This document shows, piece after piece, positions 7,547 through 36,157 of a stretch of 64,000 bases of DNA. The stretch covers positions 6,560 to 70,559 of the forward strand of contig CAYWWA010000002.1 of NCBI GenBank assembly GCA_964462115.1. The letters run 5' to 3'. The first letter of the stretch is position 1. Every line of letters starts with the position of its first letter. The DNA is from an uncultured Candidatus Saccharibacteria bacterium. GTDB lineage: Bacteria > Patescibacteriota > Minisyncoccia > Phycocordibacterales > CAIZIN01. The notes under the pieces are model-generated. The model was not told the origin of the DNA and searched no databases. It worked only from the letters and a program-made list of their open reading frames with translations. Made by a program: the position numbers and the translations under genes.

Positions 7547-9076
7547 ATGGACAACAAGTCTTCATCGCCATTTCGGGATTATTATTTTAATCGGGCTCAG
7601 CTAGAGAATAATAAAACTGAATATTTGTCATTCTTATCGGCTCTAAGGGTATTTGTAAATGCCATCAGAGATTATAAGAAGGGCGAAATTTTAAGCACTA
7701 AAGATTTTGTAGAATTTGTTAAGGTTCATAATGAAAATAATATTGAGTTAAATGATGTTGGGCCGTTTGCTAAATTAGATCAAGCGGTTAATTTTATGAC
7801 TGTGCACAAAGCAAAAGGTTTAGAGTTTGAAACAGTCTTTATCTTATCAGTCATTGATAGTGTTTGGGGCAAGGAAAGCCGAGCTAATAAATTAGCAATG
7901 CCGCTTAATTTAAAATTAAAATCTGATAGTGAAGACAATGACGATGATTGTTTGCGCTTATTTTTTGTAGCATTGACCAGAGCAAAGAAAAATTTATACA
8001 TCAGCTCTTTTGCTCAAAAAGATGATGGTAAAGAGGCGAACAAATTAAAGTTTTTATCGGGAACTGAAAATGAAGAAAAACTAAAATTGATTGATAAAAA
8101 TTATAATCAAAAAAATGAATCCATAGTTCCTGACGCTACTCTAGTCTTGGAGTCATCGTTGTTAGAGAATCAAAATCCACCAGTGGAATTTGTGGCTGAT
8201 GAAAAAGAACTATTAAAAACCTTAGTTAAAGATTATAAAATCTCTGTCACTCACTTAAATAATTTTCTAGATTTAACTAATGGTCATGGAGCAGAAAATA
8301 ATTATGGCCCACTATATTTTTTGGAGAATAATCTGTTAAGGTTTCCCTCAGGAAAAAGTTTGTCGGGTAGTTTCGGCTCCGCTATCCACTTTGCGCTAGA
8401 AAGGGCAATCAAAAATTTTAAAAAATCTGAGTCAAGCAAAATTGATAAGATAGTATCGGAGCAGGATTTATTCAAATGGTTTGAACAGAGTTTAAAAAGA
8501 GAAAAAATGTCTAAAATAGACTTTGCTAAATATTACGAGCGGGGAGTTTTTGCTTTGAAAAAATTTTGGCAAGAAAATAAAGATGATTTTAAAGTTAGCG
8601 ATTGGTCAGAATTTAGTTTTGCGAACGAGGGGGTAAAAATCGGTCAAGCTGTTCTTAATGGTAAGATTGATCGAATTAGTCAAACAGAAAAAGGGATTTT
8701 AGAGGTTTTTGATTTCAAAACCGGCAAAGCATTGAGAAAGTGGGGAAAGGATATCAAATCAATAAACTACAAGAGACAGTTGATTTTTTATAAAATTTTA
8801 GTTGAAAACTCTAAAAGTTTTGGTGATCAATTTGTGGTTCCTAAAGGAGAACTAGTTTTTATTGAACCAGACGAAAATGGGGAATTAACTCGATTGGCTT
8901 TAGAAATTGATTCTGATGAGGTAGAAAAGTTAAAGAGTTTACTTGATATTGTTTATACTAAAATTATCTCGTTAGAATTTCTAGATGAGGAGTTTCTGCA
9001 AAAACTATATAAATATCCTAAAACCATAGAGGGCAATCAACAGTTTGAACATGATTTATTAAATGGGCTAATCTAA
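7547..9076 (+). CDS. C-terminal half of a UvrD/PcrA-like SF1 helicase fused to a RecB-family PD-(D/E)xK nuclease domain
   Basis: Helicase motifs V/VI (FMTVHKAKGLEFETVF, RLFFVALTRAKKNLYIS); nuclease motifs GKIDRI, VFDFKTGK, QLIFYKIL; no Walker A or motifs I-IV. Confidence 0.7.
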   Translation: MDNKSSSPFRDYYFNRAQLENNKTEYLSFLSALRVFVNAIRDYKKGEILSTKDFVEFVKVHNENNIELNDVGPFAKLDQAVNFMTVHKAKGLEFETVFILSVIDSVWGKESRANKLAMPLNLKLKSDSEDNDDDCLRLFFVALTRAKKNLYISSFAQKDDGKEANKLKFLSGTENEEKLKLIDKNYNQKNESIVPDATLVLESSLLENQNPPVEFVADEKELLKTLVKDYKISVTHLNNFLDLTNGHGAENNYGPLYFLENNLLRFPSGKSLSGSFGSAIHFALERAIKNFKKSESSKIDKIVSEQDLFKWFEQSLKREKMSKIDFAKYYERGVFALKKFWQENKDDFKVSDWSEFSFANEGVKIGQAVLNGKIDRISQTEKGILEVFDFKTGKALRKWGKDIKSINYKRQLIFYKILVENSKSFGDQFVVPKGELVFIEPDENGELTRLALEIDSDEVEKLKSLLDIVYTKIISLEFLDEEFLQKLYKYPKTIEGNQQFEHDLLNGLI

Positions 9077-14227: not shown

Positions 14228-14791
14228 ATGGATAGAATTAGAAATTTTTCAATTATCGCTCATATTGATCATGGAAAATCAACTTTGGCTGATAGAATGT
14301 TGGAAATTACCCATACTGTAGAAGCGCGCAAAATGCACGATCGGGTTTTAGATGACATGGAGTTAGAACAAGAGCGAGGAATCACTATTAAAATGCGACC
14401 GGTGCGAATGGAGTTTCTGAGTAAACGTGATCAACAAAAATATATTCTTAATTTGATTGATACTCCCGGACACATAGATTTTTATTATGAAGTATCGCGC
14501 GCGCTCAAGGCGGTGGAGGGAAGTGTGCTTTTAGTAGATGCAACTCAGGGGGTTCAAGCTCAAACTTTAACCACCTTACAAATGGCTCGTGATGGTGGTC
14601 TAACTATTATCCCTGTGATCACCAAAATCGATTCTCCGATTGCCAACGTGGAAGAAACTAAATTAGAAATTATGCAGTTGCTTAATTGTGAAGAGAAAGA
14701 AATTATTGCCGTCTCCGGTAAAACTGGTGAAAATGTAGAATTTTTATTGGAGGAAATCTGCACCCGAGTCCCAGCTCCCAAAAAAATTTAA
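14228..14791 (+). CDS. LepA/EF4-like translational GTPase, G-domain only (187 aa)
   Basis: IRNFSIIAHIDHGKSTLADRMLE (G1), DTPGH (G3), TKID (G4); ends where LepA domain II would begin; stop overlaps next start (TAATG). Confidence 0.7.
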   Translation: MDRIRNFSIIAHIDHGKSTLADRMLEITHTVEARKMHDRVLDDMELEQERGITIKMRPVRMEFLSKRDQQKYILNLIDTPGHIDFYYEVSRALKAVEGSVLLVDATQGVQAQTLTTLQMARDGGLTIIPVITKIDSPIANVEETKLEIMQLLNCEEKEIIAVSGKTGENVEFLLEEICTRVPAPKKI

Positions 14792-16332
14792 TGAAAAGTA
14801 TTGTCGCTAAAAAAATAAAATATAGCTTGTGGAACGAAATTGTAGGAGAAAAAGAAATTTTGAAAGAGGTAAGTTTTAAGTGCGATCAAAACGAACGGCT
14901 TTGTATTTTTGGTGAAAATGGCGCTGGTAAATCTACTTTGTTGAAAATTTTAGACGCAAGGATTGGCGATGGCGAGTCTGAAATTTTAAGTGGCAGCATT
15001 GAAAAAACTGGTCATGTGCGGACTTTTTACGTGGGCCAAGAATTTGATCAAAATTTTTTACAAAAAAATATTGGAGCATACGTGGAGGTGCTGGCAGGTA
15101 AAAGTTTATATAAAAAAGTTTTTGATTATGGGCGATTGTTGGGTTTTGATTTAGAAAAAAATTCGGAAAAACTTTGCAGCGAGCTTTCAGGTGGACAACA
15201 AAAGATTTTAGTGCTATCAGTGGCGTTTGCGATTTGTCCAGATTTCTTATTTTTAGATGAACCAGAAAACCATTTAGACATTGTCTCCAGAACTGAGTTA
15301 ATGGGAATGATGGCGGATTTTTCGGGAGGAATCATTTTTGTTTCGCATGATCGACTTTTGATTGATTCGGTTGTGACAAAAATTGGAGAGTTAGTTGGTG
15401 GTGTCATGTATATATCGGAAGGTAATTATGATGACTATATTGCCAAGAAAACCGAACGACTAGAAACAGCTCAAGATTCGTATGATAAAATCTCCAAAAG
15501 AATTAAAACTTTACAAGCGATGTTGGTGATTTTAAAAAAGAAAGCTATACGGAGTAATGGACAATCAGCTTATCACCGTGCTCTAAATGAATTGGAGGAG
15601 TTACGTAGAGAGCATGGTCAAGTAGAACGGCCAAGAGATAAAAAAACTAAAATTAATTTATCCTTAGATAATAATAATTTTCATCACGGTCGCCGTCTGT
15701 GGCAGATGAAAAACGGTGGTTTTAAATTTGAAAATATGAAGCATCGGATTTTTGGTGAGACAGATTTAGAAATTCGCTCTGGTGACAGAATTGTCCTCCT
15801 TGGCAGGAACGGAAAAGGGAAAACTACTTTCTTGAGGTGTTTAACTGGTGAAACTCAAATGCTAAGTGGTGAATCTATTTGGGCAGATAAGACTGCTTGG
15901 TCATATTTTGACCAGCACTGTGCCTTTGCTGCTGATCAAACCCCAATCAAAATTGTGCAAGAGAAATTGGCTTGCGGTGAAACAGACGCTAAAGCGGCGC
16001 TGGGTATGATGAAGTTTGATGACAAAAAAATGATTACTAAGGTTGGCCAACTGTCGGGTGGTGAACGAATGCGAATTCGGTTTGCGTTAGCTTTTGGTAA
16101 GAAACCAGATTTAATCATTTTAGACGAACCGACCAACCATATTGACGAAATCACTTGGGAGATTTTAGTAGCCGCTTTAGATGAAACCAAGAGCGCTGTT
16201 TTGTTAGTGACTCATGATTATGAGTTTATTGAAGAGTTTGAACCAAGCAAGTATTGGACTTTTTCTACTGACAACAAAGTGCTAGAGCGACATAAAACTT
16301 TAGATGAGCTTTTAGATGAAATGAGGGGTTAA
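14791..16332 (+). CDS. ABC-F family ATPase (two NBDs, no TMD)
   Basis: GENGAGKST / LSGGQQKILVLSVAF / FLFLDEPENHLD and GRNGKGKTT / LSGGERMRIRFALAF / LIILDEPTNHID with an inter-domain linker. Confidence 0.8.
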   Translation: MKSIVAKKIKYSLWNEIVGEKEILKEVSFKCDQNERLCIFGENGAGKSTLLKILDARIGDGESEILSGSIEKTGHVRTFYVGQEFDQNFLQKNIGAYVEVLAGKSLYKKVFDYGRLLGFDLEKNSEKLCSELSGGQQKILVLSVAFAICPDFLFLDEPENHLDIVSRTELMGMMADFSGGIIFVSHDRLLIDSVVTKIGELVGGVMYISEGNYDDYIAKKTERLETAQDSYDKISKRIKTLQAMLVILKKKAIRSNGQSAYHRALNELEELRREHGQVERPRDKKTKINLSLDNNNFHHGRRLWQMKNGGFKFENMKHRIFGETDLEIRSGDRIVLLGRNGKGKTTFLRCLTGETQMLSGESIWADKTAWSYFDQHCAFAADQTPIKIVQEKLACGETDAKAALGMMKFDDKKMITKVGQLSGGERMRIRFALAFGKKPDLIILDEPTNHIDEITWEILVAALDETKSAVLLVTHDYEFIEEFEPSKYWTFSTDNKVLERHKTLDELLDEMRG

Positions 16333-17341: not shown

Positions 17342-17371
17342 CTTGCATTTTTAAATCAAATATGCTATAAT
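17341..17371 (+). promoter_or_regulatory. rplJ promoter: -35 TTGCAT, 17-nt spacer, TGcTATAAT
   Basis: tcTTGCATttttaaatcaaataTGCTATAAT. Confidence 0.5.
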
Positions 17372-17377
17372 TAAAAG

Positions 17378-17512
17378 ATAGGGCCAAAGAAATGGGGTAG
17401 CTGAAAAGCATAATTATCCTCACGAGGTTCGCAAAAAGTTAAAACTTTTTGCATACTCTGATCAAAGCGGCCTTACAAAAGGTCGCTTATTATTATATCA
17501 AGGCAAAAAAAT
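17378..17512 (+). ncRNA. rplJ 5' leader of about 135 nt; candidate L10(L12)4 autoregulatory leader
   Basis: Long structured-looking leader before rplJ, unlike the leaderless norm; L10 leaders are a known cis-regulatory class. Confidence 0.3.
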
Positions 17513-18547: not shown

Positions 18548-20334
18548 ATGAACTCGGACTTGAAAAATAAAACATTTACTAACTGGCAAATATGTAAAAA
18601 GTTTTTTTCTGTCTTATTTGCTAGGTATAAAATAATTTGGATATTGGTTTTTGTTGGGGTTGGAATACACCGTGTTTTGAGTTTTGTGCCAGATTATTTA
18701 GTAAAACTTGGAATCGATAAGGGAAGTGAATTTATTGGTGGAATTCTAAGCAAAAATGATTATATAGAATATTTACTACTTCTAATTATAATTTATTTTG
18801 TGGCGATGTTTTTTCAAACCACGTTGGGATTAGTAAAAGATCGGGTCTATTTTATCTATCTACGTAAACAGGCAGTAGAGTTGAAACAAAAACTTTATTC
18901 ACACTTACTAGACTTGGATCATAAATTTTGGACAAAAACCCATAATGGATCTATCTTTTCAGCACAGAGTCGTGGAATCAATTCATTTTCAATGCAGACT
19001 AATATTTTTATTCAACGCTTATTGCCTCAAGTAATTTCTCTTATCACTTCTGTTATTATTATTGTGGTCATCGTAAAAGCCGCTTTATTAATAGCAGTTC
19101 TGGTCATAGCGATAATGTTTATCTGGTCTTATTGGCTACAACAAAAGATTACTAAAATAGTTAAAAAGAGAAACGAAGCTGCTGATAAAGAAACTGGTTT
19201 CTTTGCTGATGGTATTACTAACGTTCAAGCAATCAAAAATTTTGGTAAAGAAAGTTTTATGATGAAGCTGTATAAACTTTTAATTGATGATACTGAAAGT
19301 AAAAATCTAGAAATTAATGCTAAATATGTTTTAATGCAAGTTCTTAATGGTCTGATGAATGACACTGGAGTTGGTTTAATTTTAGTAGTTTCTTTTTGGG
19401 GATTTTTGAATGGAGAAATAAGTATTGGCTCACTGTTTTTTGTTTATGCTTCCGCCTCTCAACTAATTAATAGTTTTTCAGCTTTGAATTATACTTATCA
19501 AGATTTGGCGCAACATTTTGCTCATATGGATAAAATGTTTGTGTTGTTGGAACAAAAAGCTGAAATTATTGATGACAAAAATGCCACTGAGCTAAAAGTA
19601 AGCGAAGGAAATATAAAATTTGAGGAAATAACTTTTGGGTACAATGAAGACAGAAAAATTTTTAATCAATTATCTTTAAATATTTTACCAGGAGAAAGGT
19701 GGCTTTCGTCGGTGAGACCGGTGTAGGTAAAACAACCTTAATCAATTTAATTTATCGTTTGTATGATTTAGATAGTGGTCGGATTTTAATTGATGGGCAA
19801 GATATTAAAAAAGTAAAACAAAGCTCACTGCATAATGCAATGTCAATTGTGCCACAGGAAACAGTTTTGTTTAATGATACAATTTTTAACAATATTGCTT
19901 TCTCTAATCCAGAAGCCACAAAGGAGGAGGTTTGGCAAGCAATTAGCTTTGCTCAACTAGATAATTTTATCAATAATCTGAAAGATAAGGAAAATACATT
20001 GGTAGGAGAGCGGGGGATAAAATTATCGGGTGGCGAAAAACAACGAGTCTCGGTTGCACGAGCAATTTTAGCAAATAAGAAAATTTTAATTTTAGATGAG
20101 GCCACTTCATCACTTGATTCACAAACCGAAAAAGAGCTTTCTGATGACTTGCAAAAACTAATGAAGGGCAGGACCTCTATCATTATTGCTCACCGCCTTT
20201 CAACCATTATGGATGCGGATAAAATCGTGGTATTAAAAGATGGAAAAATTGCAGAAATTGGAAAGCACCTTGAGCTATTAGAACAGACGACTATTTATGC
20301 TAAATTATGGCATTCGCAATTTAGGATTAGTTAG
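18548..20334 (+). pseudogene. ABC exporter (fused TMD-NBD) disrupted by a 1-nt frameshift near 19697
   Basis: TMD ORF ends LNILPGER then shifts frame; the NBD ORF continues VAFVGETGVGKTT (Walker A split across frames), LSGGEKQRVSVARA, ILILDEATSSLD; homopolymer ggagaaaggtgg lacks one g. Confidence 0.65.
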
Positions 20335-26686: not shown

Positions 26687-26695
26687 TGCTATAAT
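26687..26695 (+). promoter_or_regulatory. Extended -10 TGCTATAAT; first usable ATG at 26703 (leaderless)
   Basis: The ORF-track ATG at 26694 lies inside the -10, so 26703 is the likely start. Confidence 0.45.
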
Positions 26696-26702
26696 GTTAA
26701 GA

Positions 26703-27587
26703 ATGATTTTAAGCACAAGAAAAAAAATTAAGAGAGCTGTTTTATTAACTACATTATTTTATGGATTAAGTTTTTTAAATCTGTCTCCAGTCTCAGCTAT
26801 TCAAATTCAAGATAAATATCAAAATATTGGTGGTGAAAAAGTAAAAATTTTATTAGTTCCAGGACATGATCTAAAAAGTGGCGGGGCAGAAATTGACGGA
26901 CTCAAGGAGCGAGAGATTGTGGTCAAAGTGGCAGAAGCGCTAAATCAACTATTGGAGGACGACCATAGAATTAAAGTGGTGCAGATTCGCGATAGCGAGA
27001 AATGGAACCCTGATTTTAAAAAATATTTATCATCACGTAATGTGAAGAAGGTGGTAGGGTGGATTGAAGCAAGTAAGAAGAAATTTAATAGTAAAAAAGT
27101 TAATAGGGAGATATTTGATAATGTGGTGGTTTATCACAATACTGTCAACACCCGCACCAGAGACCGGTTGTATGCTATCAATAAATTTGCCAATGATAAT
27201 AATTTTGATTTAGTGCTCAACCTACATTTCAATGATTATCCTAATCGTATAGTTGGCGAAGAAAAATATCGCGGTTTTGCAATTTATATTCCAGACCAGG
27301 CTTATAAAAATAGTGCCAATAGTGAGGCAATTGCTAAGTCTGTTTTTAACAGCCTGCTCAAAGTTAATACAGTTAGTAACTTGCCCGGTGAAAATACTGG
27401 CGTCGTCTATGATCCAGAATTGATTGCTGTTGGGGCTTATAATACACTCAAGGCTCCTAGCTTACTAATTGAATATGCCTATCTTCATGAACTACTAAAC
27501 TTAACTGAAACCGAGTGGGAAGAAAAAATTACCGCTTTAGCTGTGGCCACCTATGAAGGCTTGCAAAATTTTTTACAAAGCAAATAA
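26703..27587 (+). CDS. N-acetylmuramoyl-L-alanine amidase (Amidase_3 family), secreted
   Basis: Signal peptide; LLVPGHDLKSGGAEIDGLKEREIVVKVAEAL resembles the Amidase_3 catalytic N-terminus. Confidence 0.55.
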   Translation: MILSTRKKIKRAVLLTTLFYGLSFLNLSPVSAIQIQDKYQNIGGEKVKILLVPGHDLKSGGAEIDGLKEREIVVKVAEALNQLLEDDHRIKVVQIRDSEKWNPDFKKYLSSRNVKKVVGWIEASKKKFNSKKVNREIFDNVVVYHNTVNTRTRDRLYAINKFANDNNFDLVLNLHFNDYPNRIVGEEKYRGFAIYIPDQAYKNSANSEAIAKSVFNSLLKVNTVSNLPGENTGVVYDPELIAVGAYNTLKAPSLLIEYAYLHELLNLTETEWEEKITALAVATYEGLQNFLQSK

Positions 27588-27634
27588 TAAAAAAGATACC
27601 CCAACTCAAGCCTGAAGCAGAGTTGGGGTGTTTT

Positions 27635-28048
27635 TTAAATAGAAATGGCACAAATGTCACGTTTTAATTTTAGCGTTAATTGCGCCACTGTCTCATTCCA
27701 AACCGATTTAGTGAATAGGTCATCAAAGACCACTAGAATTATCAACTTACCCTGGTTGAGAGCCAGCAAATTGGCAACACGTTCGGGATCATAAGATATC
27801 CCACGTAGAGCCAGATCTTCGCTTGCGATAGCCTCGGTTGCAAAAAATTTTGGGTTGGCAATAATTTCAGCCGTTTGCCTGACAAAATTGATTGGCGTGT
27901 AAAAAATTTTAACCTCACCAATCTTACTATCAGCCAACTCTTTCCAAAGTTGGCAAGCTCGCCTATGCACTTGGCTACTTCCATAATCTGTAAGGTCGTT
28001 TCCTTTTCGTTCTCCGTTTTTGAAGACGCAAACTAAAGAAATGCTCAT
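27635..28048 (-). CDS. Hypothetical GC-rich protein (137 aa) with a flavodoxin-like/TIR-like or histidine-phosphatase-like pattern lacking canonical catalytic residues
   Basis: SD GGGAG upstream; TTGACT-N17-TTATAT promoter; VCVFKNGERKG near the N-terminus and LIILVVFDDLFTKSVW near the C-terminus. Confidence 0.4.
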   Translation of the reverse strand: MSISLVCVFKNGERKGNDLTDYGSSQVHRRACQLWKELADSKIGEVKIFYTPINFVRQTAEIIANPKFFATEAIASEDLALRGISYDPERVANLLALNQGKLIILVVFDDLFTKSVWNETVAQLTLKLKRDICAISI

Positions 28049-28197
28049 CGTTTTTCTCCCGCTGACCAGACTAATAAGTCTCACAAAAGTTTTGTTTGTG
28101 ATAAAAAACTCTAAGCCTGATAGTCTTGTAAAAGAACTTACTATATATAATCATATTTTTAGAGATAAGTCAATTAGTTGTTTTCAAGCAAAAATAG

Positions 28198-28212: not shown

Positions 28213-30138
28213 ATGGCAACCGCAAATAAAGAATCAAATATTATTTTTGAACAACAATATAAAAAATTAAACAAGAAACAAAAACAAGCGGTAGACACTA
28301 TTGATGGTCCTTTATTAGTAGTGGCTGGTCCAGGCTCTGGCAAAACTGAAATATTATCTTTACGGGTGGGGAAAATTTTACAAAAAAGTCATGGTATATC
28401 ACCAAGCAATATCTTGTGTCTAACTTTTACCGATGCTGCCGCTAGCAACATGCGTCAACGTTTAGCAAAATATATTGGTGAGAGTGCCTATAAGGTTGGT
28501 ATCTATACTTTTCATTCTTTTTGTCAGGATATCATTCAAAAATATCCAGAGTATTTTTTTAATAATGCCACTTTTAATGTACCAAGCGAAGCGGAAAAGT
28601 TTCAAGTAATGACTGAAATTTTTAACCAACTACCCGAAGGGGAAGGGAAGCATCCGCTCAATTCTTTCCACCCAGAGCAAGGTTATGTATTTTTAAATCC
28701 CGCTCTGCAAAATATTTCCAAACTTAAACGCGAAGGTGTTTCTCCAGAAGATTTTGAACAGATTTTAGCGTGCAATATGGCAGATATGGAAAAAATTAAT
28801 AAAATTTTATCGCCTATTTTTAGTGAACGCGTATCTAGCAAAACTATCAATAAACTAGATGAAGTTTTAGAAGAAGTAAAAAAAATTGCAGTTAAAAGCA
28901 AAGAGGCTTTTCCTAATAAACACTCCTATCAAAATTATGCCGAAGTGTTGTGGCAAGATTTAGCTAAGGCAATCAGCGCTCACAATTTATCAGAATTTAA
29001 ATCTGATAATTTCAAAAAAATGGACGAAGTTTCAGTTTTAAAAGACTTCGTTAATTTACCCAAAATTAAAGCGTTTGCGCAGGTTTATAAAAATTATTTG
29101 ACCAAAATGTTTGAAAGGGGATTTTATGATTTTGACGATATGATCATGCATTGTTTAAATATTTTGGAAGGAGAAAGAGATTTGCGAGCAATGTTACAGG
29201 AACAATACCAATATATTTTGGTTGATGAGTTTCAGGATTCCAACGATCCGCAGATGCGTTTAATTAAGTGTTTAACCTCTGATGTAGAACAGCCCAACAT
29301 TATGGTGGTAGGAGACGATGATCAAGCTATCTACAAATTTCAAGGAGCAAACATTGCCAATATTTTAAATTTTAACGAAAATTATGCTGGCAAAACTATA
29401 ACCATGGTGGAGAACTATCGTTCTTCCCAAGATATTTTAGATTTAGCTAGCTTTATGATTAGAAAAGGACAAAACAGGTTAGAAAATATAAATCCCCAAA
29501 TTAGTAAAGAATTAGTGGCGTCTAGGCCTGAGCCGTTGGAGGGTGAAATTGGTTTTTTATCTTTCCCCAGCCAACCTGATGAATTTACCTTTATCGCTTC
29601 TGAGGTAAAAAAAATAATTAACAACGGAACTAAAGCTGAAGAAATTGCCGTGTTATCTCGTGATCACAAAACTCTGCAAAAACTAGTGCCATATTTTCAT
29701 CATCAAAAAATTTCCATTGCCTACGAAAAACAACGCAATGTCTTAAAGGATGCTCGCATAAAACAAATTATTACCATTATTGAATATTTAGATTCATTTG
29801 GACAAGAGAACAAAGAAGAAAGAGATGATTTGCTGCCAGCAATAATGGCTATGCCGTTTTGGGAAATACCCAGAATTGAAATTTGGAAAGTGGCCCAAAA
29901 AACTGGTTGGAAAGAGAGTGGACTTGATCAAAACGGAGATAAAAAATTTATCAACAAAAAATGGTTAGAGGTTATGTTGGAAAGCTCTCATCAAAAAGTT
30001 AGAGGACTAGCCGAGTTTTTATTGGAATTGCAAATAGACGCTAAAAATGTTCCTCTAGAAAAAATATTAGATCGGATTATTGGTTCTAAAATAAATTACA
30101 CCCATACCACAGATGAAGAAGAAAATGAAGAGCTATAG
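28213..30138 (+). CDS. N-terminal half of a UvrD/PcrA-like SF1 helicase (motifs Q, I-IV)
   Basis: VVAGPGSGKTE (Walker A), ILVDEFQDSN (II), VVGDDDQAIYKFQGA (III), ENYRSSQDIL (IV); ends inside the predicted 2B domain; motifs V/VI absent. Confidence 0.75.
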   Translation: MATANKESNIIFEQQYKKLNKKQKQAVDTIDGPLLVVAGPGSGKTEILSLRVGKILQKSHGISPSNILCLTFTDAAASNMRQRLAKYIGESAYKVGIYTFHSFCQDIIQKYPEYFFNNATFNVPSEAEKFQVMTEIFNQLPEGEGKHPLNSFHPEQGYVFLNPALQNISKLKREGVSPEDFEQILACNMADMEKINKILSPIFSERVSSKTINKLDEVLEEVKKIAVKSKEAFPNKHSYQNYAEVLWQDLAKAISAHNLSEFKSDNFKKMDEVSVLKDFVNLPKIKAFAQVYKNYLTKMFERGFYDFDDMIMHCLNILEGERDLRAMLQEQYQYILVDEFQDSNDPQMRLIKCLTSDVEQPNIMVVGDDDQAIYKFQGANIANILNFNENYAGKTITMVENYRSSQDILDLASFMIRKGQNRLENINPQISKELVASRPEPLEGEIGFLSFPSQPDEFTFIASEVKKIINNGTKAEEIAVLSRDHKTLQKLVPYFHHQKISIAYEKQRNVLKDARIKQIITIIEYLDSFGQENKEERDDLLPAIMAMPFWEIPRIEIWKVAQKTGWKESGLDQNGDKKFINKKWLEVMLESSHQKVRGLAEFLLELQIDAKNVPLEKILDRIIGSKINYTHTTDEEENEEL

Positions 30139-30200: not shown

Positions 30201-31715
30201 ATGATTAAGCATCATGGTTTTATCTACACCCTTAAGGTGTGTATGGGTCTCGGATTATTACTTAACCTACTTGGATTCGGAGCTAGTTTTTCTCTAGCTG
30301 ATGGTCAATGTGGTTTAGCGGATTTTAAAGAACTATCATCTGCGCCCTCTGGATCTATTAATCTTTGTATTACCGGTTCAGCTTCATCTGTGGTTTGGGA
30401 TGATGATATGGAACGGTGGGAATGGTCTTGCGCAGACTCAGAATCAACTGATGACTGTTTGGCTTATAAAACCGATGAGGCGGTGGATGGAAGATGTGGC
30501 GGTTATGATATTTTTAGTTTTGAAGAATCTCCTCTGTTTCACTTTCCTCCTGACAATAATGGTTTTTGTTTTTCTGGCATGCCAGCCAGTGTTTCTAGTT
30601 CTCCTAATCAATTAGGACAATGGAGCTGGGTCTGTCAGGGAGTAAACGGTGGAAGCGCCGTTAGTTGTTTGAGTGATATTTTTGAACCAGAAGATGCTGA
30701 TGATAGTGATGAAGGGAGCGATGATAATCAAACTGATTACTATGATAACAGCAATGATTCAACTGGAGCAGACGGATCTCTTTATGGGGGAGAAGATGGT
30801 CAGCAAGAAATCGGAGACGATGTAGTGATTTCTGATGAAGAATTAGCGGCGATGAGTCAAGGTACTTGTTCCTTAGAAAGTCTTGCTGCTTGTAACACCC
30901 AAGCAGACTGTTTGGATATTCAAAAATATTGGTATGTGGGCTCCGGACAAGACTATGCTAGTTGTCATGCAGAAAATTTATGTATAACTAATAATATTGC
31001 TGGTTGCAATACTGAAGCTAAATGTAATAGTATTAGCAAATATTGGTTTCAAGGAGTAGGTGAAACTGAACCAGCCTGTCATTCAATGCTGGCATGTAAT
31101 TCAAACAATTTGGAACTATGTTATTCTAACTATCTCTGTTCTGCTGTTGGAAAATATTTTTTTAATAATGCTTGCCACGAAGCACCATCCTGTAGCCGCA
31201 CCTACATTGAAGAATGTACCACACAGACACTTTGTGAAAGCAAGGGTCTATACTGGTATGATGAAACCTGTAACCTTGATCCTACTTGTGACCTAAATCA
31301 CATTTATTTATGTAATACTGAAGCCAAATGTGACAGTGTCGGTAAATATTGGTATTATGACACCTGTCATTCCGAAGAAGAGGGAAATAGTATTGATCCT
31401 CCATTTTATAAAAATTCAGATAATAGAACCGGAGTCAAAGTGGTTGATAACAAACTGGGTACCTTAGTGGTTAATTATCTTGATGTTTTAGGAAAATCTA
31501 TTTTAGCAAAAACCTCCTTGTCTAGATTGATTATTGCTGATAGCAGTAGTTATAATCCACCAGAAAATGCTAAAGGTCTAAGTTATGTGCCACTATTACT
31601 GGCGGCTGAAGGCAATGTAGTAGTAAATCAATTGTGTAATAATAATGGTGAGTGTATTTCGGTTGACACCATTGTGGAGCAATATAATAAATTAAAAAAC
31701 TTACAATGTCAATAA
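30201..31715 (+). CDS. Secreted Cys-rich tandem-repeat protein (novel repeat)
   Basis: Signal peptide; about 5 tandem units of 30-39 aa with consensus C-N-T-x-A-x-C-x-S-x-G-K-Y-W-[YF]...C-H...C, also repeated at DNA level; acidic D/E-rich segment. Confidence 0.6.
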   Translation: MIKHHGFIYTLKVCMGLGLLLNLLGFGASFSLADGQCGLADFKELSSAPSGSINLCITGSASSVVWDDDMERWEWSCADSESTDDCLAYKTDEAVDGRCGGYDIFSFEESPLFHFPPDNNGFCFSGMPASVSSSPNQLGQWSWVCQGVNGGSAVSCLSDIFEPEDADDSDEGSDDNQTDYYDNSNDSTGADGSLYGGEDGQQEIGDDVVISDEELAAMSQGTCSLESLAACNTQADCLDIQKYWYVGSGQDYASCHAENLCITNNIAGCNTEAKCNSISKYWFQGVGETEPACHSMLACNSNNLELCYSNYLCSAVGKYFFNNACHEAPSCSRTYIEECTTQTLCESKGLYWYDETCNLDPTCDLNHIYLCNTEAKCDSVGKYWYYDTCHSEEEGNSIDPPFYKNSDNRTGVKVVDNKLGTLVVNYLDVLGKSILAKTSLSRLIIADSSSYNPPENAKGLSYVPLLLAAEGNVVVNQLCNNNGECISVDTIVEQYNKLKNLQCQ

Positions 31716-32125
31716 AAATTAAAAGAACACTCTTATGCCTTGTTATGTTGGTTCCAATCTTAGTATTTGGTAATGAAATTTTAAATCCAGTGATAAAAAC
31801 TAATACAGAAGATAGGCAACAGATTGATAATCCAATATCAGTCGGGGCTTTAATAGTAAACCAAGAAGCAATTTTCAATAAACTTTTCATCACTGAAAAT
31901 AATAAGATTAGAATTGGTGATTTAATAACTGGCGCCTATAGTAATTCTATTCAAGTCCAACTTAAAAAAACTAACTTAAAAACCGCCGCTGGAGCCAGAC
32001 AATATTGTACTACTGGTGGAAGGTGCTTTAATTCTAAACAGCTGTTAGATATGATTAACACCATCAAAAACCAATCCCCAGCCCCCACCTGTTCTAATGC
32101 TTCGATAAAAATTAACCAGCTTTAA
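31706..32125 (+). CDS. Hypothetical secreted protein (139 aa)
   Basis: Signal peptide LLCLVMLVPILVFG; overlaps upstream gene by 10 nt. Confidence 0.5.
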   Translation: MSIKIKRTLLCLVMLVPILVFGNEILNPVIKTNTEDRQQIDNPISVGALIVNQEAIFNKLFITENNKIRIGDLITGAYSNSIQVQLKKTNLKTAAGARQYCTTGGRCFNSKQLLDMINTIKNQSPAPTCSNASIKINQL

Positions 32126-32137
32126 CCCAAAATCACT

Positions 32138-33289
32138 ATGAAAATCATCAAAGTAAAAAAAATAAGCACCATAATGATTTTGTTGACTACGCTGTTTTTA
32201 GCACCATCTTTATCTGCTAATACAGAGAATTTACTGCCACCGCTCAACACCTCTGTTTCGTCTCAAAAAGTAAACTCGCTCAAACTGGGTAGTGATGGAC
32301 TGGTGTCATTTCAATTATATACTCAAGGCGAAACAATAATTTCTGGGACAACTAAAGCTCAAGGAGTTTATGTTGAGGGTAAATCGTTTGCTCAAATCAA
32401 TGATGGTGGATCTGGAATATCAGCTGGCAGTTTAGTCATAAACACTCTGGATAATGATGGTAAAATGTCAGCCGACTATTTTTGCGACGAGAATGGTGAA
32501 AATTGTATTTCTATTGATACCTTGTTGAAATTAGACGATATTGGCAATTGTACTAAAAATTGTCCCACCCCACCTCCTCCAGCTAATACTGATGAAATGT
32601 GGTGGTCTGATACAAGAAAAATCAAAGCTGCTGATATTTTTAATACTTGCAACAATCTAAATGCGGCCGCTACATACAAGGGAGATGGCAAGAGCTATGA
32701 TGATTGGCGGGTGCCAACAGTGGAAGAAGTTATTTCAGCTATGGTAGGACAGATTGGTAGTCGTGGCAGTACCCGTCCAAGATCCGAACTTTTATTTGGT
32801 GTGAACAAAAGCCAAGTTGGTTCTCGGGCAGCTAGGAGAAACAATAAATTGGTTACTATGGAATATAACTGTGCTTTATTAGAGAATGGTGTTAATACCT
32901 ATAGCAGCAACTACACCGCGCTGTGTGTAAGAGGGAGCGTAGAAAAGAAAACTTTTGCTAGCACCAAATTACAAGACTTAATGACTGGCGTAAGTAATTA
33001 TTATTCAACAGATTTGGATCCATTCATCGCATCTAATAGACGGAATTATACTTCCAATAATGGAACCCAGAGATACTATATGAATGATGGCCATACTTGG
33101 ATTGGTACTACTTCCGGATTTTCAGCAGAAAAATCCGGAAGCAGTTGGGGTGTGTCACTGGCTGAAGATATGAAAGGTAACATTAGTAGTCCATCCAATT
33201 ATGTAATCCATGCCTATAGAGCATACTGTAAAAGCTCTAACCCAGTTTGGATCAATGGGGGAAGCTATTTTAGAATATTAACAAGTTAA
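32138..33289 (+). CDS. Secreted protein with a DUF1566-like (Lcl C-terminal) domain
   Basis: Signal peptide; SYDDWRVPTVEEVISAM resembles the WRLPT..EL motif of DUF1566; ALCVRG near the C-terminus. Confidence 0.45.
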   Translation: MKIIKVKKISTIMILLTTLFLAPSLSANTENLLPPLNTSVSSQKVNSLKLGSDGLVSFQLYTQGETIISGTTKAQGVYVEGKSFAQINDGGSGISAGSLVINTLDNDGKMSADYFCDENGENCISIDTLLKLDDIGNCTKNCPTPPPPANTDEMWWSDTRKIKAADIFNTCNNLNAAATYKGDGKSYDDWRVPTVEEVISAMVGQIGSRGSTRPRSELLFGVNKSQVGSRAARRNNKLVTMEYNCALLENGVNTYSSNYTALCVRGSVEKKTFASTKLQDLMTGVSNYYSTDLDPFIASNRRNYTSNNGTQRYYMNDGHTWIGTTSGFSAEKSGSSWGVSLAEDMKGNISSPSNYVIHAYRAYCKSSNPVWINGGSYFRILTS

Positions 33290-33300
33290 TCAAAATTTAA

Positions 33301-33792
33301 ATGAAAAAGATCATCATATTAATTATTCTGATTTTAGTTATTGCTTCTGGATTGTATTTAATTTTTAAACTGAATCAGACTGAAACAAAAAACAAGATAG
33401 AGTTTAATCCCGAAGTTGTTCCGACCAAGGAAGAAATATCATATAATCTGATTGCGCCATCGGCTGAAAATATTGCAGAGAATATGTCAATTAGTGATAA
33501 AGAAGAATATTCTTCTTGGCTACAAGAGCAGAAAGAATCAGACTGTGCTAATGATGGTAGTTGTATGATTTTTCTGTGTAGAAATTACGACAGGATGGTG
33601 GTCCAACTCACTGAAAGCGGTGCTTATGTAACTATCAAGAACGACGTTTATGCTTATACAGCAGACTATAATGAAGAAACTGGGACTACCAATCTTACCC
33701 TTGATAATAAAAAAATTATTTATGATCACGAGACTACCGATTTAACTATTTACGAAAAAGAGGGGGAACAAACCTGCTATTTAGCATATTAA
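33301..33792 (+). CDS. Hypothetical membrane-anchored protein (163 aa)
   Basis: Single N-terminal TM IIILIILILVIASGLYLIF; last gene of a 4-gene operon. Confidence 0.5.
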   Translation: MKKIIILIILILVIASGLYLIFKLNQTETKNKIEFNPEVVPTKEEISYNLIAPSAENIAENMSISDKEEYSSWLQEQKESDCANDGSCMIFLCRNYDRMVVQLTESGAYVTIKNDVYAYTADYNEETGTTNLTLDNKKIIYDHETTDLTIYEKEGEQTCYLAY

Positions 33793-35356: not shown

Positions 35357-36157
35357 ATGGCAGAGAAACGAAAAACGGTAGGCTTAGTTTTAGGTTCTGG
35401 TGGTGGTAGAGGCATGGCCCATTTTGGCGTTATTAAAACCCTCCAAAAGCATAATATTCCGATTGATTATGTTAGTGGTTCAAGTATTGGTGCCCTAATT
35501 GGTGCCTATTTTGCCCTAAATCAAGAGGTAGACTCTTTAATTGAGATCTTTAAGGCAGCAGTCAAAAAACGCTCTTCTTTCTTTGATTTTGCTGGTAGAA
35601 GAGGTTCAGTCTTGGGCGGCACAAAAATCAAAAAAGTTTTAGAGCAAATTTTTCAAGACCAAACATTTGATAATTTGAAATTGCCTTTTTTAGCAGTCTC
35701 GACCGATCTCGGAAGTGGGGAAGCTATCACTTTAAATTCAGGGAAAATTTTGGAGGCAGTTTTACCGTCAATTAGTATTCCTGGAGTTTTACCGATTTAC
35801 GATCAAAAGCCACCTTATCACTTGGTGGATGGTGGGCTATCTTCGGCCTTACCAATTAAACAAATGTTGGAAAATTTTCAGCCTGATGTTTTAATTATCG
35901 TAGACCTCTACACGCCTAAAAGTAAAACCTCAATCGATTATACTGTGAGTTCAGTTTCTAAAAGAGTTTATGAGTTGACGATTGCAAAATTGTCGCAGAT
36001 TAATATGACTGAAATTGATCGCCCTGCTGCAATTCTATTACCTGATACCAACGAAGATTGGCGCAACTTGTTTTTTGCTCATATTGATGATAATGTGGAA
36101 AAGGGTAGTAAAGAATGTGAAGCAAAAATTTTATCAATCAAGCAATTATTAGAATAA
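35357..36157 (+). CDS. Patatin-like phospholipase
   Basis: GLVLGSGGGRGMAHFG oxyanion hole, GSSIG nucleophile elbow, DGG. Confidence 0.8.
   Translation: MAEKRKTVGLVLGSGGGRGMAHFGVIKTLQKHNIPIDYVSGSSIGALIGAYFALNQEVDSLIEIFKAAVKKRSSFFDFAGRRGSVLGGTKIKKVLEQIFQDQTFDNLKLPFLAVSTDLGSGEAITLNSGKILEAVLPSISIPGVLPIYDQKPPYHLVDGGLSSALPIKQMLENFQPDVLIIVDLYTPKSKTSIDYTVSSVSKRVYELTIAKLSQINMTEIDRPAAILLPDTNEDWRNLFFAHIDDNVEKGSKECEAKILSIKQLLE

Follow-up and report, generated by a model that had tools for sequence, protein, structure and literature searches.

A 137-residue orphan protein of a Candidatus Saccharibacteria bacterium, possibly a degenerate variant of the histidine-phosphatase fold

A 64,000-nucleotide stretch of DNA from an uncultured Candidatus Saccharibacteria bacterium (assembly GCA_964462115.1, contig CAYWWA010000002.1, positions 6,560 to 70,559; hereafter the window) holds, in the interval 27635-28160, one open reading frame (ORF) on the minus strand that encodes a protein of 137 amino acids. 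Judging from its sequence, we give an even chance to the view that this protein is a lineage-restricted alpha/beta protein derived from the branch-1 histidine phosphatases (of the SixA, CobC and dPGM kind), strongly diverged, shortened, and deprived of the catalytic set. It would then be the product of a genuine, monocistronic gene confined to its lineage, and it would have retained scaffold motifs of the fold, namely the G12 of the RHG motif, LTDYG and the Q-T-A helix start. If functional, the protein may act by binding or scaffolding instead of catalysis, an analogy drawn from superfamily members that are catalytically dead.

Results

Similarity to histidine phosphatases

The protein was compared with the profile libraries Pfam, NCBIfam, PADLOC and PHROGs, which together contain about 88,000 models. 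The only match at E < 0.01 across the four libraries was to NCBIfam NF038349, dPGM_arch (E = 8.7e-4, 19.2 bits), with residues 16-65 aligned to profile positions 23-66. This match was kept when residues 1-70 were submitted alone (E = 2.8e-4). Inside the matched segment, L19-T20-D21-Y22-G23 satisfies the L(S/T)XXG motif, which is located at the start of helix alpha1 and is conserved in histidine phosphatases (PMC5501728). The same segment contains TPINFVRQTAEII, which includes an SPxxRAxQTA-like motif (TPINFVRQTA) with F55 at the position of the phosphate-binding Arg. A BLASTP comparison with the SixA-like Nostoc protein Alr0221 (PDB 3f2i) aligned IFYTPINFVRQTAEII to IVTSPLIRARQTAEIL and placed TPINFVRQTAEII opposite SPLIRARQTAEIL of Alr0221, with TPINFVRQTA standing opposite SPLIRARQTA. 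The protein segments relevant to the comparison are the following.

27998..28024, minus strand: residues 9-17, FKNGERKGN, at the site of the RHG(E)xxxN loop (direct reading, and the His_Phos_1 alignment of the reverted sequence described below)
27854..28003, minus strand: residues 16-65, the sole notable family match (NF038349), holding LTDYG (residues 19-23) and TPINFVRQTAEII (residues 51-63)
27722..27748, minus strand: residues 101-109, KLIILVVFD, a candidate strand ending at the position of the second catalytic His (local hidden Markov model; register uncertain)

Four substitutions, K10R, N11H, F55R and D109H, were then introduced in silico, and the reverted sequence was analyzed together with seven controls, four of them shuffles in which R, H, G, R and H stayed at their positions and three of them plain shuffles. 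The reverted sequence was recognized by Pfam His_Phos_1 with E = 5.9e-4 and 20.0 bits (gathering score 21.7), residues 10-67 being aligned to profile positions 5-67. Five histidine-phosphatase models of NCBIfam responded as well: dPGM_arch (1.8e-5), MSMEG_4193, ribazole_cobC, sixA (E = 0.015, residues 16-66) and PRK07238. None of the seven shuffle controls matched His_Phos_1 or the five NCBIfam models. When local SixA-type hidden Markov models (HMMs) were used, the wild-type sequence outscored 97.6-99.5% of 2000 shuffles (empirical p 0.005-0.024), and the reverted sequence outscored at least 99.95% of the motif-keeping shuffles.

For the N-terminal half of the protein, two AlphaFold runs gave an identical prediction, consisting of a strand at residues 3-9, a helix at 26-40, a strand at 46-48 and a helix at 53-63. 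This order matches the beta1-alpha1-beta2-alpha2 arrangement of SixA, a pattern that is shared by many alpha/beta folds. Three further resemblances were set aside. The likeness of ANPKFFATEAIASEDLAL to ETPPMFTTSAIASVTLDE of SixA was judged to be a matter of chance, its position not being collinear with the alignment, and the hits to Pfam DUF2124 (E = 0.048) and to phrog_36618 of PHROGs (E = 0.047) were not significant.

Replacement of the catalytic residues

The catalytic cluster of the family comprises two His and two Arg residues, the first Arg-His pair being part of the RHG motif (PMC5501728). H105, R152 and H230 of PGAM5 and H8 and H108 of SixA served as reference positions; the H8A mutant of SixA is inactive (PMC6282199). 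In the 137-residue protein, the RHG position reads K10-N11-G12, which means that K10 stands in place of the Arg and N11 in place of the nucleophilic His, with G12 retained. The position of the second phosphate-binding Arg is occupied by F55, according to the alignment to PDB 3f2i. The sole His of the protein, H28, lies within predicted helix 1. As for the second catalytic His, a local SixA-type HMM puts LIILVVF[H] of the reverted sequence on vlvvgH, whereas MAFFT proposes a different register; D109 probably occupies this position. Descent from an active phosphatase would thus have involved the loss of the catalytic set at every place, from Arg to K10, from His to N11, from the second Arg to F55 and, probably, from the second His to D109. 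Because these residues replace the catalytic set, neither a phospho-histidine intermediate nor the hydrolysis of phosphate esters is expected, regardless of where the protein came from. As a derivative of the family it would be a pseudoenzyme.

Of the peptides quoted in the original prediction, VCVFKNGERKG occupies residues 6-16 of the protein and LIILVVFDDLFTKSVW residues 102-117, each exactly as given there. One of its two proposals was a His-less, phosphatase-like pseudoenzyme. The non-canonical catalytic positions were indeed found, and the weak dPGM_arch match and the reversion point to the phosphatase part of the proposal, but the fold is unproven.

Evidence against the relationship

Several results weigh against descent from the histidine phosphatases. 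The wild-type protein did not match His_Phos_1 (PF00300) in Pfam at E <= 10, nor did the NCBIfam scan return TIGR00249 (sixA). The 19.2 bits obtained with dPGM_arch compare with a curated cut-off of 225, and only 50 residues are covered; even the reverted sequence stays below the gathering score of PF00300 (20.0 vs 21.7 bits). A phmmer search of the PDB sequences gave no match for the wild-type protein and was empty even with the reverted sequence. Alignment by hhalign to two SixA alignments resulted in probabilities of 1.9% and 1.4% and paired an unrelated stretch of 17 residues. The SixA profiles were thin because the searches returned almost only sequences from Enterobacteriaceae and Agrobacterium. 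The C-terminal register is ambiguous, given the disagreement between MAFFT and the local HMM, and the protein has only 137 residues where E. coli SixA has 161. Finally, no homologue of the protein was found, and the sole other copy of the gene (SRR11845625), being 100% identical, offers no variation that could bear on selection.

Structure prediction likewise failed to support the relationship. The predicted local distance difference test (pLDDT) score was 47.6 for the single sequence and 41.1 when SixA rows were supplied as the alignment, both values being unconfident. The failure with the SixA rows is weak evidence either way, because the MAFFT alignment was mis-registered at the N-terminus. 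Fold searches with the low-confidence model gave generic alpha/beta matches only. The original prediction had named, as the outcome that would speak against it, a confident match to some unrelated housekeeping fold; no such match emerged either.

Since the profile score is below threshold and both the RHG motif and the second Arg are replaced, leaving the LTxxG motif as the only hallmark present, the protein should not be classed with the histidine phosphatases. The best label is that of an orphan, possibly a degenerate variant of the histidine-phosphatase fold. Homology to the superfamily itself, as far as it can be read from the sequence, we consider close to a toss-up.

The most serious competitor, to which we assign a lesser but still substantial probability, is an unrelated orphan alpha/beta protein with a generic beta-alpha-beta pattern of the Rossmann-like or flavodoxin-like type. 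The resemblance to phosphatases would then come down to two short motifs that agree by chance, and homology would offer no means of assigning a function. The negative results listed above would be accommodated by this explanation. Against it, the top match among about 88,000 models belongs to the very family that had been predicted beforehand from the motifs, six independent histidine-phosphatase models respond to the reverted sequence and none to the controls, and the wild-type sequence itself stands out from its shuffles (p 0.005-0.024).

The gene and its expression signals

The elements that define the ORF and its presumed expression are listed here.

28048..27635, minus strand: coding sequence of 137 amino acids from the ORF list (ATG at 28048-28046; stop codon at 27637-27635, within the coordinates)
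28060-28056, minus strand: Shine-Dalgarno sequence GGGAG, read from the sequence and followed by AAAAACG (7 nt) and the ATG
28173-28145, minus strand: promoter-like site TTGACT-N17-TTATAT with a TG 1 nt ahead of the -10 hexamer; putative function
28138..28049, minus strand: putative 5' leader of about 90 nt, deduced from the promoter-like site with a start assumed about 7 nt past the -10 hexamer
27591..27636, strand-neutral: hairpin with A/T runs on either side (inverted repeat I3; RNA fold)

If translation began at an alternative GTG in the same frame (28084), the protein would gain 12 residues and reach 149 amino acids, but this GTG has no Shine-Dalgarno sequence. The ATG at 28048 is preferred as the start codon because the Shine-Dalgarno sequence precedes the ATG and not the GTG. 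The TTGACT-N17-TTATAT promoter of the original prediction was recovered at 28173-28145; it is the sole match to this pattern in the 64-kb window, where 0.02 are expected by chance. A generic sigma-70 scan missed the site, since it accepts only -10 hexamers with an A at position 2 and TTATAT has none there. The leader showed no significant fold (z -1.37) and matched no Rfam family, so that no regulatory RNA was detected in it. The hairpin at 27591-27636 is strong (-22.3 kcal/mol, z -4.18), with none of 200 shuffles being equally stable, and it abuts the stop codon of the ORF. It looks like a bidirectional intrinsic terminator that is common to the ORF and to the convergent amidase gene (26694-27587, plus strand). 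On its other side, the ORF is flanked by a divergent UvrD-like gene (28213-30138, plus strand). The ORF therefore looks monocistronic.

To evaluate coding character, we used a codon model trained on the window genes with Pfam support. The ORF scored +0.163 bits per codon in frame, and all other five frames were negative. None of the Pfam-supported genes scores so low (mean 0.344 ± 0.066, minimum 0.201), and four orphan ORFs nearby are in a similar range (0.13-0.21). In shuffled versions of the window, the expected number of stop-to-stop ORFs with 149 codons or more is 0.05. With its intact frame, codon score, Shine-Dalgarno sequence, promoter-like site and terminator hairpin at the stop codon, the ORF looks like a genuine gene.

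The GC content of the ORF is 0.406, compared with a mean of 0.366 (standard deviation 0.029) for the ORFs of the window, and its GC content at third codon positions (GC3) is 0.377, compared with 0.299 (standard deviation 0.049). The excess of +1.4 to +1.6 standard deviations does not make it an outlier, as several ORFs equal or exceed these values; the earlier description of the gene as GC-rich thus holds as a slight excess but not as a distinguishing feature. The contrast with the neighbours in translation signals was confirmed. GGGAG lies 7 nt before the ATG of the ORF, which has a presumed leader, and GGAG-type Shine-Dalgarno sequences occur in only two to three of the 30 genes examined in the window. 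In seven of the 30, TATAAT or TATACT is found 6-7 nt before the ATG, a leaderless arrangement. Most genes of the window lack a Shine-Dalgarno sequence, and the seven TATAAT or TATACT cases suggest that leaderless transcription and translation are widespread in the source genome; examples of starts are those at 14228, 16373, 25727, 28213, 30201, 37267 and 11434.

It is rather unlikely, in our estimation, that the ORF is non-functional, whether as a decaying phosphatase relic with a still open frame or as a fortuitous intergenic ORF. Such an origin would agree with the replacement of all catalytic residues, with a length below that of the family members, with a codon score of 0.163 that falls under every Pfam-supported gene of the window (minimum 0.201), with the lack of conservation evidence for the ORF, and with the occurrence in the window of further genes that look broken (an ABC transporter and a helicase, each of them split, and an EF-Tu GTPase domain standing alone). 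It is opposed by a frame that stays open in a genome rich in stop codons (expectation 0.05 ORFs of this length), by a well-placed Shine-Dalgarno sequence, a promoter-like site and a terminator, and by an in-frame codon score that is clearly above those of the other five frames and akin to those of the neighbouring orphan genes (0.13-0.21).

Relatives and origin

A word-indexed search of 5.8 billion clusters retrieved only the protein's own sequence (P0001), located on one NCBI contig of 83.8 kb and on one Logan contig. The Logan copy (SRR11845625, L001) is 100% identical in DNA. Among about 15 billion proteins, no true relative beyond the own sequence came to light. Two additional phmmer hits among 1.84 billion representatives, a mucin-like protein of 5994 residues and a repeat protein of 1267 residues, were dismissed as artefacts, their scores being the sums of 27 and 7 weak repeat matches, respectively. 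Viral contigs and a tblastn search of phages and plasmids provided no match to the 137-residue protein.

Synteny was examined with the adjacent UvrD-like gene as an anchor at 88 loci, 54 from GTDB genomes and 34 from metagenomes. No ORF resembling the 137-residue protein was found at any of them. The closest relative of the UvrD-like gene, with 45% identity, is encoded at metagenome locus L059, and the best matches from named taxa are mostly from metagenome-assembled genomes of Saccharibacteria and other candidate phyla (35-38% identity). Upstream of the helicase gene of L059 lies dnaG-rpoD, in the place where the window has the 137-residue ORF. With at best 45% identity for the anchor and no copy of the target at any locus, we conclude that sampling of the source lineage is poor, and we class the gene as an ORFan.

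No convincing flanking repeats and no mobile-element boundaries were detected around the ORF. The Shine-Dalgarno sequence and leader, together with a GC3 that is slightly raised and a codon fit that is weaker, would suit a foreign origin or a recent acquisition from a donor that uses Shine-Dalgarno sequences; no donor sequence for the gene was found in the databases searched. In terms of its relatives, the gene is an ordinary lineage-specific orphan of an AT-rich genome, with no detectable relative. A bolder proposal would make it the founder of an unseen and extremely lineage-restricted group of minimal, 137-residue histidine-phosphatase-fold pseudoenzymes, recently acquired or invented, translated from a Shine-Dalgarno sequence in a candidate-phyla genome that for the most part initiates without such a sequence or without a leader, and binding a phospho-ligand or a phospho-protein instead of acting as an enzyme. 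We consider this unlikely.

Genomic neighbourhood and the defence proposal

The original prediction had also offered a stand-alone, ThsB-like TIR protein engaged in NAD-dependent defence signalling. This proposal found no support in the searches. It has in its favour only the size of about 137 residues, the alternating beta/alpha pattern and a motif likeness seen by eye. No TIR-family model of Pfam matched the protein at E <= 10, and none of the PADLOC models, those for ThsB included, did so at E <= 0.1. In the likeness of VCVFKNGERKG to the TIR betaA-loop (SFRGEDTR), FKNGE has one residue more than FRGED, so that the registers differ. The suggested partner genes were missing as well, as no SIR2, SLOG or macro domain was found among the Pfam-scanned ORFs spanning 11.4-44 kb. 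With neither profile match nor partner gene, we regard a TIR function as very improbable.

The Pfam-scanned ORFs of this region are mostly housekeeping or envelope genes. The amidase side of the ORF comprises a polysaccharide-synthesis protein, NfeD/SPFH, an EF-Tu-type GTPase domain, ABC-F, ribosomal protein L10, an ABC transporter, sigma-70, a Na/Ca exchanger, fmt and the amidase. A further ORF on this side was recognized by eye from its sequence as P-type-ATPase-like and is not a result of the scan. The UvrD side comprises the UvrD-like N-part, glycyl-tRNA synthetase (GlyRS), a patatin-like protein, Maf, FtsW, a glycosyltransferase, a class I Glu/Gln-type tRNA synthetase, SecY and the ribosomal proteins L15, S5 and L6. 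The UvrD-like gene matches GajB models, as any UvrD would. No GajA-like partner was seen among the Pfam-scanned ORFs, of which only four were subjected to PADLOC. The patatin-like phospholipase gene (35357-36157, plus strand) is located 7 kb from the 137-residue ORF, between GlyRS and Maf, and has no adjacent defence-type partner.

Other features of the window

The UvrD/AddA-type helicase-nuclease next to the ORF is distributed over two ORFs that are 19 kb apart, both on the plus strand. The N-terminal part (28213-30138) has 641 residues, contains UvrD-helicase and positions 1-123 of 350 of UvrD_C, and ends with DEEENEEL. The C-terminal part (7547-9076) has 509 residues, begins with MDNKSSSPFRDYY, and contains UvrD_C positions 227-348 of 350 together with a PD-(D/E)XK nuclease domain. 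The two parts are separated within the second RecA-like domain, at an acidic linker. The homologue at L059 is a single ORF of about 1100 residues (1148 codons stop-to-stop), of which residues 667-1142 match window positions 7565-9055 with 39.8% identity (E = 2e-96). The split could be due to true gene fission, to a rearrangement or to misassembly.

Directly after the N-terminal helicase part, four consecutive ORFs (504, 139, 383 and 163 residues; 30201-33792, plus strand) gave no Pfam match. By eye, the 504-residue ORF is rich in Cys and contains the motif C-x-x-x-x-KYW(Y/F) repeatedly; hydrophobic N-termini, suggestive of secretion, are seen in several of the four.

An ABC exporter likewise appears to be split between two ORFs on the plus strand, one for the membrane domain (18548-19726) and one for the ATPase (19699-20334), which share 28 nt read in different frames. 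The GTG start of the second ORF is preceded by AGGAG. A frameshift or a sequencing error could account for the split, or the exporter may truly be encoded by two genes. A 187-residue ORF at 14228-14791 (plus strand) contains an EF-Tu-type GTP-binding domain only and ends exactly at the start of the ABC-F gene (14791-16332); it may be a truncated translational GTPase. An Rfam L10_leader (17366-17502, plus strand; 46.7 bits, gathering score 44) is located upstream of the gene for ribosomal protein L10 (17513-18010).

Discussion

The closest points of contact of the 137-residue protein are with the archaeal-type dPGM and the branch-1 phosphatases (NF038349, PF00300), with which it has in common the G12 of RHG, LTDYG and the (S/T)Pxx-x-x-QTA helix start. 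E13 and N17 also fit the RHGExxxN loop of dPGM and CobC. The protein has about 60 residues fewer than these phosphatases, and the loop that joins the RHG region to LTxxG comprises only six residues. SixA (TIGR00249, PDB 1ujb) is likewise a small, stand-alone protein (161 residues) and has a comparable order of strands and helices in the N-terminal half, but the 137-residue protein has Asn where SixA carries the essential His8. The likeness to ThsB and other bacterial TIR proteins is limited to size and the alternating beta/alpha pattern; neither a profile match nor a Thoeris partner gene nor a defence-island context is present.

A functional precedent for a binding role comes from the flea salivary proteins XcAP-1/2/3, which belong to branch 2 of the superfamily, have lost both catalytic His residues and act as inactive, ligand-binding scavengers (PMC10728186). 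The precedent holds by analogy. The XcAP proteins are eukaryotic, secreted, much larger and without sequence relationship to the 137-residue protein, and their fold and ligands were shown by experiment, whereas the latter is known from its sequence alone.

For a single orphan without conservation evidence or a link to defence, the practical importance is low. Its expression from a Shine-Dalgarno sequence and a leader, among neighbours that are largely leaderless or lack such a sequence, could mark a recent gene gain. If the homology is true, the protein would be among the smallest derivatives of the histidine-phosphatase fold, with the catalytic set almost wholly lost. It would then represent a bacterial case of a phosphatase that became a pseudoenzyme, in a reduced genome of which each retained gene calls for an explanation.
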